Assembly (NCBI GenBank): GCA_050742335.1
Contig: JBOGIR010000122.1
Location: forward strand, 1 to 62,480
DNA: 62,480 nucleotides
Reading direction: 5' to 3'
DNA from: Vicinamibacterales bacterium
Lineage (GTDB): Bacteria > Acidobacteriota > Vicinamibacteria > Vicinamibacterales > UBA2999
A program made the translations under genes and the position numbers. Of the stretch, positions 12,842 to 62,407 are shown piece by piece. The stretch's first letter is position 1. Each line of letters opens with the position of its first letter. The notes beneath the pieces are model-generated. The model saw only the letters and a program-made list of their open reading frames with translations. It had not been told where the DNA came from and ran no database searches.

Positions 12842-12880
12842 ACGCCTCTCCGATTGTGTCGCCGTGTCGGTTAACAGGCT

Positions 12881-12997
12881 ATGGTGAAACTCACCAAGGC
12901 GCCACGGAGACACAGAGACACGGAGTCTTTTCCAGATGTTTTCTCTGTGCCTCTGTGCCTCTGTGCCTCTGTGGCCCTGCCGGGACTTGTGCCACGG
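12881..12997. repeat. CACAGAGG-type hairpin element (full copy, inverted orientation)
   Basis: Arms are GCGCCACGGAGACACAGAGACACGGAG and CTCTGTGCCTCTGTGCCTCTGTGCCTCTGTGGCCC around a T-rich loop. Fills the gap between A2 and A1. Confidence 0.85.
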
Positions 12998-33142: not shown

Positions 33143-33222
33143 GGGCCACAGAGACACAGAGGCACAGAGAACATCTTGAAAAACTCTGTGTCTCTGCGTC
33201 TCTGTGGCGCCTTGGTCGCTTG
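33143..33222. repeat. CACAGAGG-type hairpin element (full copy)
   Basis: GGGCCACAGAGACACAGAGGCACAGAG-aacatcttgaaaaa-CTCTGTGTCTCTGCGTCTCTGTGGCGCC. Confidence 0.85.
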
Positions 33223-33281
33223 CACCGCAGGACGCATCGAGGATAATTCATCTGTCCCTTCACTAAGAAAGGAGCACTGCG

Positions 33282-55643: not shown

Positions 55644-55681
55644 CGCGAGACCCTAGACAGTTCGTGGCGATAGTCGCGGCC

Positions 55682-55708
55682 GGGCCACAGAGGCACAGAG
55701 AAAACATC
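55682..55708. repeat. half-copy (left arm only) of the CACAGAGG hairpin element
   Basis: GGGCCACAGAGGCACAGAGAAAACATC with no right arm. Confidence 0.6.
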
Positions 55709-57551: not shown

Positions 57552-57570
57552 CGATCCATCCTAACGGTCC

Positions 57571-57672
57571 GTGGCACAAGTCCCGGCCGGGCCACAGAGG
57601 CACAGAGGCACAGAGAAACATCTAAAGAAAAACTCTGTGTCTGTGTCTCTCCGTGGCGCTTTGCTGACTTTC
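57571..57672. repeat. CACAGAGG-type hairpin element (full copy with long flank)
   Basis: GTGGCACAAGTCCCGGCCGGGCCACAGAGGCACAGAGGCACAGAG-aaacatctaaagaaaaa-CTCTGTGTCTGTGTCTCTCCGTGGCGC. The flank matches the reverse complement of the 12881 copy. Confidence 0.85.
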
Positions 57673-57916
57673 ACTACAGCCTACTTGCCCCGGGTACTTG
57701 ACGTTCGCCGACGGATGGGCGCACGACCGGCTGCCAGGCCAGGTCGCGCGCCGGTTGAGGCTACGGCTCACTGTCGCGGGATGTTGCGGCTCCAGCAAGA
57801 ATCGGGCTGTTTCAGGTATGCCCATTGGCCGCGCAGATCATGCCGACAAGGAACGCGTGATGAAGATTTTTCTACGAGTTCGTCGGCAACTGCTACACAG
57901 CTCGCAGACACCTTCA

Positions 57917-58085
57917 CCAGAGACCAGAGACCAGAACCGGTTTCATGACCATGTTGGCCGACTTCGCCACGTCGCTCCGCAAACCGGGAACTGACGCTGC
58001 AGAGCACGGTTTGCTTCGGACGTGGCGCAAGTCGGCTTCCGCACCGGGTTATGAAACCGGCTCTAGAGGACCAAGGCCCAGAGCC
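57917..58085. repeat. ~170-nt extended imperfect hairpin (possible structured RNA/MITE) upstream of the second DUF6152-like gene
   Basis: Pairing segments are CCGGTTTCAT/ATGAAACCGG, GGCCGACTTCGCCACGTC/GACGTGGCGCAAGTCGGC and CCGCAAACCG/CGGTTTGC. Outer arms are CCAGAGACCAGAGACC / GGACCAAGGCCCAGAG. Confidence 0.7.
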
Positions 58086-58580: not shown

Positions 58581-59657
58581 ATGAAGAAACGCCGGACCAG
58601 GCGTGCGGCCGTCGCGGCTCTTGCCTGGAGCCTGTTGCTCGCGACAGCGGCTGCCGCGCAGACAACATTGTTCACAACACAGGATTATCGGCAGGACCAG
58701 GCGCGTTGGACTGACCCCGCGTACTACCTCTACAACACGGCTCGCCAGCTCACCGACATGCAGGTCGACAACCGGTTCGGCCAGAAGGGATCCGGCGCCG
58801 AAAAATACGACATCAGGACACCCTATCCGTTCCGGACCTCGAGGGAGCATTACCAGGCCTGGCGCGAGAAGGCCGAGGGCGGGACGAAGCACACAGCGGC
58901 GACGCTGCCGAACTGGGATGGCGTCTGGACCGGAGGTGGGGCCACCTGGCTCGACAGCGACGACATTCAGGCCAGCACGGTGGCGGCGGCGTTGACGCCC
59001 CAGTACCGCGAGTACTACGTGCAGCAGGCCAAAGCCGAAGCTGAGGGGCGCCATTGGTGGGCCGCCGCGTTCTGCCTGCCCGACGGCTTCATTCGCGGTC
59101 TCTGGCGCACGCCCCAGCAGATGGTCATCCGTCCGAATGAGATCGTGATGCTGACCGACACGCTGGTCTCGACCCAGGTTCGCTGGGTCTACACGGATGC
59201 CCGAGGGCACCGGCCCGAGGACCAGCAGTTTCCCCAGTGGCTCGGCGAGTCGATCGGCTTCTGGGACGGCGCGGCGCTCGTCATCCACACCAATCAGATC
59301 AGACAGTGGAATGCCACCCATTCATTGTTCGAGTGGAGCGATCAGCTGACGGCGGTCGAGCGCTACGAACGCGTCGGGAACGAGATCGTGGGCGAGGTCA
59401 CACTGTACGACCCGGTGGCGTTCCTCCATCCGCTGCACGCCCGCTTCCGGTTCAGGCGGGACGATAAGACCGATCGCATGGTCTACAGTACGTGCACGGA
59501 CACGAACGGACCGTCCAGCAACATCTACGCGCGGCCGAACGGGATCGTCGACGAGCGCGTGCCGGGCGACGCCGGCTATTGGGACCCGAACGACCCGCGG
59601 CCGTGGGCGAAGCACTACGCGATTGGGGAACGATCCCCGAGCCGCACCGGCAGATGA
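58581..59657 (+). CDS. secreted protein, uncharacterised paralog family (divergent copy C1)
   Basis: Lies 9 nt after the DUF6152-like gene. Shows 'FCLPDGFIR', 'WLGESIGFWDGAALVIHTNQIRQW', 'LTAVERYERV' and 'YDPVAFLHPL'. Confidence 0.8.
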   Translation: MKKRRTRRAAVAALAWSLLLATAAAAQTTLFTTQDYRQDQARWTDPAYYLYNTARQLTDMQVDNRFGQKGSGAEKYDIRTPYPFRTSREHYQAWREKAEGGTKHTAATLPNWDGVWTGGGATWLDSDDIQASTVAAALTPQYREYYVQQAKAEAEGRHWWAAAFCLPDGFIRGLWRTPQQMVIRPNEIVMLTDTLVSTQVRWVYTDARGHRPEDQQFPQWLGESIGFWDGAALVIHTNQIRQWNATHSLFEWSDQLTAVERYERVGNEIVGEVTLYDPVAFLHPLHARFRFRRDDKTDRMVYSTCTDTNGPSSNIYARPNGIVDERVPGDAGYWDPNDPRPWAKHYAIGERSPSRTGR

Positions 59658-59662
59658 TCGAT

Positions 59663-59838
59663 TGCGGATTTCAGATCGGTCGATTGCAGATTGTTGTCGA
59701 ATGACGATTTCCTGATTTTCGAAGTGAGTTTCGATTGACTGCGAATTCCCTCAATCGCCAATCAGTTCGAACGATCGTCATTCAGAAATCGTCAACAATC
59801 ATGAATCGAGCACTCATAAATCTGCAATGACCGGCGGT
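59663..59838. mobile_element. ~175-bp low-GC palindromic MITE-like element, copy R1
   Basis: Aligns along its whole length with 60934-61109. Both share an identical 54-bp core, TTCGATTGACTGCGAATTCCCTCAATCGCCAATCAGTTCGAACGATCGTCATTC. The arms are imperfect inverted repeats (CGGTCGATTGCAGATT / AATCTGCAATGACCG). Confidence 0.75.
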
Positions 59839-59858
59839 TTCCCTGACATGCAGCCTGC

Positions 59859-60986
59859 ATGACCCTGACTCCGGGAACGCAGCTCGGACCGTATGAAGTC
59901 GTCGGCGCTCTCGGCGCCGGCGGCATGGGAGAGGTATATCGTGCCCGCGACACGAAGCTGCAGCGGGACGTCGCGCTGAAGGTCCTCCCCGAGAAGTTCG
60001 CCCTCGATCCTGCGCGCCTCGCGCGATTCAGGCGCGAGGCGCAGATCCTCGCCTCGCTCAACCATCCGAACATCGCCGCCATCTATGGACTCGAGGAACA
60101 GCCAGTCGTAGTGTCCGGCTTCCCGCCTCCGCCGAAGGCTCCGGCGAGGCTCGCCGAAGCGCGCGTCGCGCGCGAAGGCGGCAGCCGGACGGTTTGTGCA
60201 CTCGTGCTCGAGTTGGTCGAAGGTCCGACGCTGGCCGACCGCATCACGCAGGGCCCGATCCCGCTCGAAGCGGCGCTGCCGGTCGCCCGCCAGATCGTGG
60301 AGGCGCTCGCCGCCGCCCACGAGAAGGGGGTGATTCATCGCGACCTCAAGCCCGCCAACATCAAGGTGCGCGACGATGGCACGGTCAAGGTGCTCGACTT
60401 TGGTCTGGCGAAGCTGACCGAGCCGGCGGGAACCGACGAAGCGGCCGCCACGCACCTACCGACGATCACGAGCCCGGCGGTGGTGACGGGCGCGGGTGCG
60501 TTGCTCGGCACCGCGGCGTACATGGCGCCCGAGCAGGCAAGAGGGTCTGTGGCCGATCGGCGTGCCGATCTGTGGGCGTTCGGGGTGGTCGTCTGGGAGA
60601 TGCTCACCGGCCGCCGATTGTTCGAGGGCGCCACCGTGTCCGACACGCTTGCCTCTGTGCTGAAGACGGATCCGGATTGGAGCGCTCTGCCGGTGGATAC
60701 ACCGTCGGCCCTCCGGCGGCTCCTGCGGAGGTGCCTGGAAAAAGATCGCAATAGGCGGCTCGATTCTGCGGCAGATGCGAGGATCGAAATCGACGATGCA
60801 GCGAGCCGCGAGTTGGCCGGTGCCGATCCGTCGCAACCGTTTCCGCACCGCCCACGGATCGCCTGGATGTCGGCGCTCGCGCTTGTCATGGTCGTGGGGA
60901 CGGCACTCACCCTGAGTCCCGCGGCGCGCGGAATGCGGATTTCAGAGTGGTCGATGGCAGATCGTTGTCGAGTGACGATTTCATGA
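59859..60986 (+). CDS. Ser/Thr protein kinase, kinase domain + TM only (apparently truncated; 3' end runs into repeat R2)
   Basis: Shows 'LGAGGMGEVYRA', 'HRDLKPANI', 'DFGLAK' and 'YMAPEQ'. One TM segment (MSALALVMVVGTALTL). The last ~18 codons are encoded by R2. Confidence 0.8.
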   Translation: MTLTPGTQLGPYEVVGALGAGGMGEVYRARDTKLQRDVALKVLPEKFALDPARLARFRREAQILASLNHPNIAAIYGLEEQPVVVSGFPPPPKAPARLAEARVAREGGSRTVCALVLELVEGPTLADRITQGPIPLEAALPVARQIVEALAAAHEKGVIHRDLKPANIKVRDDGTVKVLDFGLAKLTEPAGTDEAAATHLPTITSPAVVTGAGALLGTAAYMAPEQARGSVADRRADLWAFGVVVWEMLTGRRLFEGATVSDTLASVLKTDPDWSALPVDTPSALRRLLRRCLEKDRNRRLDSAADARIEIDDAASRELAGADPSQPFPHRPRIAWMSALALVMVVGTALTLSPAARGMRISEWSMADRCRVTIS

Positions 60987-61109
60987 TTGTCGAACTGAGG
61001 TTCGATTGACTGCGAATTCCCTCAATCGCCAATCAGTTCGAACGATCGTCATTCGGAACTCGTCAACAGTCGTCAATCGATCAATCTGAAATCAGCAATG
61101 AGCCGCCGG
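60934..61109. mobile_element. ~175-bp low-GC palindromic MITE-like element, copy R2
   Basis: Same orientation and same 54-bp core as R1. Confidence 0.75.
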
Positions 61110-61139
61110 ATGATAGTAGACTCCCCTTCAGAAGGAGAC

Positions 61140-62081
61140 GTGACCGTGCGCAACCAGTTCTCCGGATGGATCATCCCGCTGGCGCTCGTTGCGGGGCTCA
61201 TGTCGCTGCCGCAGGTACCAGTCGCCGCCCAGCGCCCGTATTACGTGACGCCCCCGCCGGGCTCGGGCCCGACCCCGATGGCGCCGTACGGGCAGTCGGG
61301 CGGCTGTTCCGAGGACCCCGCGATCTTCCACAAGTGCGCGCTGGATGCGGCAAAGGCCTTTTCCCCGCCGCGCACGCCCGACGGCCGGCCCAACTTCCAG
61401 GGTTTCTGGAACCGTATCGTCGCCCGCAACGCGGAAAACGTCGAGGAGCATCCCCAGGGGATGGACGGGTCGGGCGGAAAGACCCTGATCGTCGATCCCC
61501 CGAACGGCCGGATTCCGTACCAGGCATGGGCCGCGGCGAAGGTGGAGACGCACTTCGCGACCTACTGGAATCCGGTCCAGCAGTGCATGCCGGACTCGCC
61601 GCCGAGGCAGGCGTACACCGCCGGCAGCTTTCAGATCGTGCAGACGCCCGGCAACGTGTTCTTCATGACGGAACAACTCCGCACCTACCGCGCGATCCCG
61701 ACCGACGGGCGGCCGCATCTCCCCGCATCCATTCGCCTCCACATGGGCGACTCGCGGGGCCGCTGGGAGGGAGACACACTCGTCGTCGACGTGACGAACC
61801 TGAAGGACCGGGTGTGGCTCGACCACGTAGGCAACTTCTACAGCGAGTCGGTCCACATCGTCGAACGCTGGACGATGTTTCATCAGGACGTCATCCACTA
61901 TCAGGCGACCATTGACGATCCGAAGGTCTACACGCGCCCCTGGACGATGATGTTGGGATGGCGGCGCAACACCCAGCCGGGATTCGAGACGTTCGAGAGC
62001 GCGTGCTGGGAAGGCGTGCAGGGCGGCCAGGAGCGGCTCCAGAACGAGCTCAAGATCTACACGGGCGCGTTCTCCAAGTGA
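61140..62081 (+). CDS. secreted protein, uncharacterised paralog family (copy C2)
   Basis: Shows 'RTPDGRPNFQGFW', 'IPYQAWA', 'QCMPDSPPR', 'IPTDGRPH', 'HMGDSRGRWEGDTLVVDVTNLKDRVWLD' and 'DDPKVYTRPWT'. I placed the start at GTG 61140 (or 61146) after GAAGGAGA; the track ATG at 61098 lies inside repeat R2. Confidence 0.8.
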   Translation: MTVRNQFSGWIIPLALVAGLMSLPQVPVAAQRPYYVTPPPGSGPTPMAPYGQSGGCSEDPAIFHKCALDAAKAFSPPRTPDGRPNFQGFWNRIVARNAENVEEHPQGMDGSGGKTLIVDPPNGRIPYQAWAAAKVETHFATYWNPVQQCMPDSPPRQAYTAGSFQIVQTPGNVFFMTEQLRTYRAIPTDGRPHLPASIRLHMGDSRGRWEGDTLVVDVTNLKDRVWLDHVGNFYSESVHIVERWTMFHQDVIHYQATIDDPKVYTRPWTMMLGWRRNTQPGFETFESACWEGVQGGQERLQNELKIYTGAFSK

Positions 62082-62255
62082 CGCTCGAATAGCGCCGCGG
62101 CAACAAGTCTCACGACGACACACCGGGGACTTTTTTCGTGCGGCGGGGAAAATTTCGCGCGTATCCACGATGCCGTGTCGCGGCGTGGACTTCAATCGCC
62201 TGACAAACCGACACCTTTGCACCGCCAGTCTCTCGGGCATCGTACTTGCCACATG

Positions 62256-62315
62256 GGACCGCTATACGGCTCCCAACGCGAATTCGTACTCGTTGTGAAT
62301 CCCGTATAGCGGTCC
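62256..62315. repeat. ~60-bp palindromic element, copy P3
   Basis: GGACCGCTATACGGCTCCCAACGCGAATTCGTACTCGTTGTGAATCCCGTATAGCGGTCC. Confidence 0.85.
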
Positions 62316-62407
62316 CAGGCGCGCGGAGCGCGCCAAGAAGACGCTGCTAGCCACCCAAGGGCATCCTCGACCGGGGGATATCAAGAGCGAGCCCTTGGCT
62401 GGTTTCA

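Follow-up and report, generated by a model that had tools for sequence, protein, structure and literature searches.

A truncated Ser/Thr kinase gene between two copies of a palindromic repeat family in a soil Vicinamibacterales genome

The kinase locus

The window analysed here is contig C122, 62,480 nt in length, of the genome G000, a metagenome-assembled genome (MAG) of a soil Vicinamibacterales bacterium (5.85 Mb in 646 contigs, 65% GC). Near the right end of the window, an open reading frame (ORF) for a truncated Hanks-type Ser/Thr kinase lies between two direct copies, R1 and R2, of a palindromic element belonging to a dispersed family that we name E165 (Table 1). We consider it likely that R1 and R2 are copies of a non-coding, non-autonomous palindromic family, that the kinase lost its sensor at the boundary of one of them, and that the R1–kinase–R2 unit is not a mobile cassette.

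Table 1. Features of the kinase locus, with positions in the window
Feature	Position	Strand	Remarks
C1, secreted protein, family unassigned	58581..59657	+	ORF; upstream neighbour of R1
R1, E165 copy, 170 nt	59660..59829	+	Forms most of the C1–kinase spacer; 29 nt ahead of the kinase ATG
Truncated Hanks-type Ser/Thr kinase, 375 aa	59859..60986	+	Kinase domain, linker, one transmembrane helix, R2-encoded tail
GC-rich palindromic repeat, 84 nt, in-frame, 28 codons VVSGFPPPPKAPARLAEARVAREGGSRT	60108..60191	+	Inside the kinase domain
R2, E165 copy, 170 nt	60931..61100	+	Left end abuts the kinase frame; right end ~30 nt upstream of the C2 ribosome-binding site
C2, secreted protein	61146..62081	+	Probable GTG start at 61146; longest ORF runs from an ATG at 61098, inside R2

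A repeat search of the window returned a single direct repeat of 176 nt with 88% identity (59660-59835 and 60931-61106), and the element ends given in Table 1 were set by alignment of the whole family. An earlier, sequence-only reading of this DNA had described two direct low-GC copies sharing an identical core of 54 bp. This description holds: the pairwise alignment contains an identical stretch of 54 nt (columns 91-144), and GC content is 0.43-0.50 across R1 and R2 as against 0.64-0.73 in the surroundings. Each copy is also, as had been proposed, an imperfect palindrome, folding into one long hairpin of ~55 bp. The predicted RNA folds have energies of −61.8 kcal/mol for R1 (z = −4.4 against dinucleotide shuffles) and −78.6 kcal/mol for R2 (z = −6.8). 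The stop codon of C1 (59655-59657) lies 2 nt from R1 by the family-alignment boundary and 5 nt from it by the boundary of the earlier reading, which had remarked on this proximity. A Pfam search with C1 gave no match.

The kinase matches Pkinase (PF00069, E = 3.5e-47), and the motifs GAGGMGEVY, VALK, HRDLKPANI, DFG and APE can all be read in its translation. One hydrophobic transmembrane (TM) helix is found at about residues 334-352 (~60858-60914), and the GC content at third codon positions (GC3) is normal, at 0.78. Codons 359-375 (17 aa) and the TGA stop are encoded by R2, close to the ~18 codons originally attributed to it, and the ORF ends 22 residues past the TM helix. G000 holds at least 61 strong paralogues of this kinase (~114 loci by tblastn), the nearest being 58-61% identical with frames of 904 and 926 aa. 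Homology to the paralogues of 900-1080 aa ends at '...PAARG', ~6 residues after the TM helix and at the left edge of R2, whilst the paralogues run on for ~550 residues beyond this point, with the PD40 repeats of a β-propeller that are absent from the 375-aa kinase. The best relatives in a representative library of 1.84 billion proteins are 60-70% identical and mostly 880-920 aa long, and the proteins that give the closest full alignments (P0005, P0022, P0023 and P0033) measure 889-913 aa. Judged by homology, the kinase is truncated at the element boundary, as the sequence-only reading had suggested.

It might be supposed instead that the 375-aa protein is a native short form, consisting of a kinase and a membrane anchor, and that R2 landed on or next to the original stop. 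Some library relatives are indeed only 350-480 aa long, the catalytic motifs are complete and GC3 is normal, and E165 commonly lands on stop codons. However, many of the short database entries are probably contig fragments, the full-length frames of 904-926 aa in the genus and the closest full alignments all represent the long form, and the paralogues pass from TM helix into propeller exactly where R2 begins. We therefore regard a native short form as unlikely.

Orthologues of C1, with ~80% nucleotide identity, are present in three congeners (G001, G002 and G003). They share the C-terminus and stop of C1, and have different downstream neighbours, neither the kinase nor C2 being found there. 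In G001 (locus L051, G001:C6:2625-6985) the C1 orthologue converges tightly on a P-type ATPase gene; it is recovered as two tblastn segments, with a change of ORF frame near the C-terminus, and may be frameshifted.

The E165 family and its insertion sites

A BLAST search of G000 with R1 and R2 found E165 at 88 places, 74 of them at least 140 nt long. The consensus, built from 62 well-aligned copies, is an AT-rich sequence of 169 nt (TATTGCAG...GGCACTA), to which the copies are 68-94% identical (median 87%; R1, 88.8%). It forms a hairpin of 55 pairs with 90% of cells paired. The left end, TATTGCAGATTTCAGATTG, matches the reverse complement of the right end, TAGTGCCGATTTCAGATTG, and the complementarity extends along the whole element. 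The arms consist of degenerate runs of 7-nt words, GATTGnn and nnCAATC, with lag-7 autocorrelations of 0.48 and 0.42 compared with a background of ~0.22, and further peaks at lag 14 in both arms. Between the arms is a conserved centre of 12-30 nt (GACCGCGAATTCCCTC), which is non-coding and not palindromic. E165 contains no ORF other than the tails of genes reading into it, and it lacks the PF05635 gene carried by relatives described below. An Rfam scan of positions 59500-61300 at E ≤ 1 gave no match.

Copies of E165 stand at the ends of contigs C373, C231, C329, C356 and C164. Contig C615 (150-1900) holds one left-end and one right-half fragment with 1.7 kb of genes between them, including a duplicated gene end, and the right-half fragment is split by a copy of the GC-rich palindromic repeat that also occurs inside the kinase gene. 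This locus is a product of nested insertion and rearrangement.

The distribution of the family was followed in 40 relatives, among them four congeners (G001-G004). Congeners G002 and G004 have a handful of copies each, none was found in searches of G001 and G003, and elsewhere among the 40 only weak partial matches were seen. Copy number thus ranges from 0 to ~90 within one genus. A groundwater Acidobacteria MAG carries about four copies at 72-75% identity. For two G000 copies, in the murB-murA spacer and on contig C300, the orthologous spacers of the four congeners all lack the element; these spacers are 16-120 nt long or hold another gene. The reverse case was also found, G002 having a copy where contig C364 of G000 shows an 18-nt gap between aligned flanks. 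The element is therefore not confined to the two positions at the kinase locus, nor is the kinase found in this form as the full-length protein of its relatives, the two findings that the sequence-only reading would have taken as signs of a stable domain architecture. Its proposal that the element resembles a miniature inverted-repeat transposable element (MITE) is borne out by the number of places, the non-coding and palindromic sequence, and the presence and absence of copies between species. A BLAST search of G000 with joined flanks, for empty paralogous sites, returned none spanning a junction, only further repeat families.

In the murB-murA spacer, all four congeners (L061-L064) share a small conserved hairpin (GAGCGCACGCTTCAGCGTGCGC) that is absent in G000, where the E165 copy takes its place; different repeats thus occupy the same spacer in different species.

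Placement relative to genes was assessed with a GC3-based ORF call. The E165 copies are intergenic and usually lie 0-30 nt from a stop codon. Their flanking genes are co-directional for 23 and 16 copies in the two element orientations (a difference that is not significant), convergent for 16 and divergent for 4 (convergent against divergent, p = 0.012). In 10 copies a converging gene has its stop codon exactly on the right terminal TA (TAG in seven, TAA in three), and in three copies on the left one. Four ORFs, that of the kinase among them, run through the left end and terminate 25-53 nt into the element. The two ends differ in a way that accounts for this. On the incoming strand the right end reads TA-GTGC, so that a TAG stop is restored, whereas the left end reads TA-TTGC, giving TAT and a frame that stays open until a TGA is reached. 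This asymmetry would explain which insertions are tolerated.

Among copies with an intact terminal TA, the base ahead of the left TA is a pyrimidine in 34 of 39, and the base after the right TA is a purine in 24 of 30; for all NTAN sites in the genome the corresponding background values are 32% and 31%, and that for YTAR is 5.7%. TA is found at both ends in 16 of 61 copies, a count to be read with the poor conservation of the outer bases and with cross-species empty sites that are not exactly alignable. The pattern may reflect a duplication of TA on insertion, but insertion into YT|AR would fit it equally well. E165 adds a discrete, high-copy family with a measurable target preference, for Y-TA-R sites and stop codons, and with the asymmetry of ends described above.

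The copies are clustered, with 12 adjacent pairs within 3.5 kb as against 3.6 ± 1.8 in random placements, and they are mildly enriched beside genes of the C2 family. Amplification of E165 together with duplicated gene clusters was considered and rejected: homologues of C1, C2, the DUF6152 gene or the kinase lie within 1.5 kb of only 12 of 62 copies, and the flanks of the copies share no DNA similarity. The paralogue families of G000 are themselves very large, with ~114 loci for the kinase, ~114 for C2-type genes, 45 for DUF6152 and 13 for C1.

The position of the copies beside stop codons, the bias towards convergent spacers and the very stable hairpins would all suit a signal acting in cis, as RNA or DNA, and kept by selection, for instance a bidirectional terminator, a hairpin that stabilises mRNA or is processed by RNase III, or operon punctuation. 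A further point in its favour is that the related intervening sequences of 23S rRNA are cut by RNase III (PMC4990558). On the other hand, pairing is not kept by compensation, the base changes across copies comprising 16 compensatory double changes and 460 one-sided ones. There is no preference of orientation (23:16) or of strand, the plus strand giving the more stable fold in 36 of 62 copies. Scans for sigma-70 promoters and intrinsic terminators found none, and there is no terminator-like T-tract. The element-free orthologous spacers of the congeners, and the wide range of copy number within the genus, also speak against selection for such a signal, which we consider improbable.

Candidate mobilising systems

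TA-flanked MITEs derived from IS630/Tc1-mariner elements are known in bacteria, examples being RUP in Streptococcus pneumoniae and Correia/NEMIS in Neisseria. E165 shares with them a length in the range of 100-170 nt, the lack of an ORF, inverted-repeat ends and dozens of dispersed, mostly intergenic copies, as well as presence/absence between relatives and TA at both ends in a Y-TA-R context. As with the IS630-derived MITEs, G000 also holds several copies of an IS630-family insertion sequence (IS), which has C-TA...TA-G flanks. E165 is small and non-coding, has terminal inverted repeats (TIRs), and is found in many copies with insertion polymorphism between relatives; no cognate transposase-encoding element with the same TIRs was found in this incomplete MAG. 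E165 also differs in being one whole palindrome of 7-nt words, rather than two short TIRs around unrelated DNA, and its gene-bearing relative has a PF05635 gene in place of a transposase. A search of the genome with the terminal 50-mers of the consensus recovered only the rearranged fragments on C615.

The IS in question, on contig C33 (8917-10139), is 1,223 bp long and has perfect inverted ends of 18 nt (CCTAGTGCCTCGACCGCG). Its end sequence also recurs on contigs C309, C583 and C626, each time ~108 nt from the contig end, and close to the end of C98, which marks it, on sequence, as a multi-copy IS that breaks the assembly. Members of the IS630 family are described as inserting at TA, duplicating it, and preferring CTAG (PMC2170065; Tenzen & Ohtsubo 1991 cited there), and this target rule matches the flank signature of E165. 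By analogy, an IS630-family transposase may be the best candidate for the mobiliser, although we hold this with somewhat less than even confidence.

The assignment of E165 to the repetitive extragenic palindromic (REP/REPIN) elements, which are associated with a Y1 transposase gene (RAYT), was examined and rejected. E165 is 169 nt long as against palindromes of 20-40 nt, it has no GTAG/CGTC tag, and the single Y1_Tnp match in the genome is not associated with it. That match, on contig C445, is weak (34 bits), is interrupted by an in-frame TAG and lies on a contig without any E165 copy.

A different connection is suggested by the PF05635 genes, which encode the four-helix-bundle protein of 23S rRNA intervening sequences (IVSs) and of which G000 has seven. 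The one on contig C110 lies between arms beginning TATTGCAGATTT, which align to both arms of E165 with scores of 52 and 65, compared with shuffled maxima of 34 and 37. The orthologous cassette of G002 (L226, G002:C11) gives arm scores of 76 and 62, and its right terminus, AAATCTGCAATG, is as in R1. Both cassettes share their left terminus, TATTGCAGA, and right terminus, AAATCTGCA, with E165, and the protein encoded inside matches PF05635 (E = 1e-15). E165 may therefore be a gene-less derivative of a cassette in which similar arms surround a PF05635 gene. Inverted heptamer arms were found at 22 of 35 PF05635 loci sampled in the family and at 16 of 30 sampled in the genus (38 of 65 in all). The arm words differ between loci (L090-L124 and L205-L234), for example AGTAGGC, GGGGATC, GGTTCGT and AAGTCAA.

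ORF-bearing IVSs of 23S rRNA genes, such as that of Coxiella burnetii with its S23p ORF, have a 28-bp stem and heptamer repeats, are excised by RNase III, and have been proposed to be of mobile origin (PMC4990558). E165 and its relatives resemble such ORF-bearing IVSs in their long, stem-forming terminal inverted repeats and tandem heptamer arms, and the relatives on C110 and on G002:C11, but not E165, have the PF05635 gene in the loop. In contrast to the IVSs, E165 has lost the gene, lies between protein-coding genes rather than in rRNA, and is high-copy and conserved along its whole length. It is a rather doubtful proposal that E165 and the GATTG-word-armed PF05635 cassettes are the non-autonomous and gene-bearing forms of one mobile class, that of the long-unexplained 23S rRNA IVSs. 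If this were true, the burst of E165 from 0 to ~90 copies in one genus would be the first clear record of recent transposition for that class. It would also supply a rule for target choice and a system in which to look for what moves the class, be it the PF05635 protein, a host enzyme or a transposase of IS630 type provided in trans.

Inverted arrays of heptamer repeats have also been described in Xanthomonas (GGGAATC) and Nostoc (Rehm et al. 2015, PMC4692102). E165 is like these arrays in its 7-nt periodic arms and non-coding location, and both favour sites near stop codons and between aligned or convergent ORFs, and are under-represented between divergent ones. However, the words of E165 are of the AT-rich GATTG type, are not G-quadruplex (G4)-forming and are degenerate, and its fixed length, fixed termini and conserved centre indicate that it is copied as a discrete unit, unlike a microsatellite of variable length. 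As a well-defined, high-copy and recently expanded family, E165 connects three poorly understood entities: intergenic hairpins with heptamer arms, the PF05635 cassettes and the intervening sequences of rRNA.

History of the locus and neighbouring repeats

R1 and R2 are mutual nearest neighbours in the family, at 88.2% identity, the next best copies being 82-86% identical. They share 11 derived states distributed over their whole length, including an unusual terminal GA...TG, and have 7 (R1) and 12 (R2) private changes. No other pair of E165 copies on the same contig consists of mutual nearest neighbours. This pattern points to sister copies that arose from an old local duplication or hop, or from a copying event that took in the terminal bases.

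The close kinship of R1 and R2, their direct orientation and their common GA...TG ends are also what would be expected of a composite, transposon-like or excisable cassette that moves or loops out as a whole, an explanation offered by the sequence-only reading. The gene is tightly bracketed, 29 nt upstream and 0 nt downstream, and the 54-nt identical core is in principle long enough for homologous recombination. However, G000 holds a single such unit: its kinase has no second copy, the next paralogue being 61% identical, and matches in metagenome contigs do not exceed 63%, so that no second insertion of the unit has been seen. The 12% divergence of R1 and R2 means that they have stayed in place for a long time, neither lost nor homogenised. 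The outer flanks (TC|GA...TG|AG) show no matching target duplication, and the other clustered E165 pairs are not sister copies. A cassette is thus very improbable, and we take the arrangement of R1, R2 and the kinase to be a routine product of repeat activity, not a novel type of mobile cassette.

The sequence of events that we favour, in which the sensor was lost at an element boundary, would begin when E165 enters a short spacer at a Y-TA-R site, very frequently at the TA of a TAA or TAG stop codon. Its right end (…GCAC-TA, or TA-GTGC on the other strand) would restore a stop codon. Its left end (TA-TTGCAG…) would not, and a gene entering there would be extended into the element. After insertion, copies would simply decay. 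R2 occupies the place at which a periplasmic PD40 sensor domain should follow in the kinase, and the part coding for the sensor would have been lost at the E165 boundary, through element-adjacent deletion or recombination with another copy. What would remain is a membrane-anchored kinase with intact catalytic motifs and an element-encoded tail of 17 residues. Deletion between the two repeats, which the sequence-only reading had put forward, is one possible route beside the other two; no relative was found with an orthologous kinase at the locus that would tell these routes apart. On this account, a sensor kinase that is one of more than 100 paralogues was cut to a sensor-less, membrane-anchored form, and the locus illustrates how repeat families may remodel the large signalling-gene families of soil Acidobacteria.

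Several points weigh against this account. No orthologue of the kinase was found in the congeners, in metagenome contigs (best 63%) or in the protein library (at most 61-68% identity across these searches), which means that the full-length ancestor is deduced from paralogues only. No empty site is exactly alignable, cross-species spacers being too diverged for a target duplication to be read. Of the terminal TA dinucleotides, the outer T is conserved in 64% of copies and the outer A in 49%, as against ~98% and ~90% for the inner A and T, a pattern that fits insertion at YT|AR without duplication as well as it fits TA duplication. As to the association with a transposase or RAYT that had been envisaged, it did not emerge: no transposase gene in this incomplete MAG has ends matching E165, the four DDE_3 (IS630-type) loci having been checked, and the IS on C33 has just the 7 nt TAGTGCC in common with the element's right end. 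The gene-bearing cassette occupies the same locus in G000 and G002, and its own movement was not seen. Finally, the MAG is in 646 contigs, and the join across R2 is that of the assembly.

This last point raises the question of whether the truncated end is an artefact, in which a full-length kinase interrupted by E165 was joined to a different copy upstream of C2. The fragmentation of the genome, the frequent breaks at E165 copies (the five contigs named above) and the end of the window's own contig just past another repeat would all be in keeping with such an error. Yet R2 is coherent and full-length, with R1-like derived states in both halves (8 in the left, 3 in the right), which is unexpected for a chimera. 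Moreover, a search of the assembly found no orphan PD40 sensor fragment beside any other E165 place, and copies that are only 80-90% alike have few long shared k-mers. We judge a misassembly to be improbable, and retain sensor loss at the element boundary as the likely explanation.

A second repeat has affected the same gene. Residues 84-111 of the kinase are encoded by the 84-nt GC-rich palindrome (Table 1), which has a fold of −51 kcal/mol. Most homologues align residue 112 of the kinase to their own residue 84, making this a 28-aa insertion, at a position that we take, from the kinase fold, to be the β4–β5 loop. Other copies, at 89-95% identity and outside kinase genes, in unrelated ORFs and in spacers, are found on contigs C372, C25, C411 (two) and C190, those on C411 standing in tandem and in frame inside an ORF of 1080 aa. 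In addition, there are many 42-nt partial copies in the genome, one copy in G001 at 94% identity, and the copy nested in the E165 fragment on C615. The paralogues on C387 and C564 carry opposite-orientation remnants of the repeat in the same loop. Rickettsia palindromic elements (RPEs) reportedly insert in frame into protein-coding genes, and the 84-nt repeat is like them in being a dispersed palindrome with a length that is a multiple of three, lying in frame in a surface loop with the catalytic motifs intact. It is unlike them in sequence, in its richness in GC and in coming from a different phylum, and the reversed remnants on C387 and C564 imply an older and more complex history at this loop.

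Downstream of R2, the sequence-only reading had placed an ATG for C2 inside the element. The codon is there, at 61098 in the last bases of R2, but it is probably not the true start. An AGGAG (61133-61137) and the GTG at 61146 are common to the G004 orthologue, and the alignment shows nothing in common upstream of them, from which it follows that R2 lies upstream of C2 and is not part of it. The C2 protein family is represented by the ~114 loci mentioned above. Repeats of this kind break MAG assemblies and can give rise to false starts, such as the C2 ATG, and false C-termini, such as the kinase tail, in gene calls.

The window contains other repeats. A separate dispersed repeat of ~115 nt has copies at 12872-12996, 33155-33228, 55658-55708 and 57567-57674; G000 carries this repeat at over 80 sites, one of which adjoins an E165 copy on contig C419. 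At the end of the contig, a stretch of ~150 nt (62252-62405) has dozens of matches, 78-87% identical, in G001, G002 and G004 and contains a perfect 16-nt inverted repeat (62254-62269 and 62302-62317). This repeat probably broke the assembly at the contig end. Upstream of the DUF6152 gene, 135 nt of non-coding DNA (57933-58067) is 92-93% identical to two places in G004 (on C17 and C36), far above the ~80% identity of the flanking genes.

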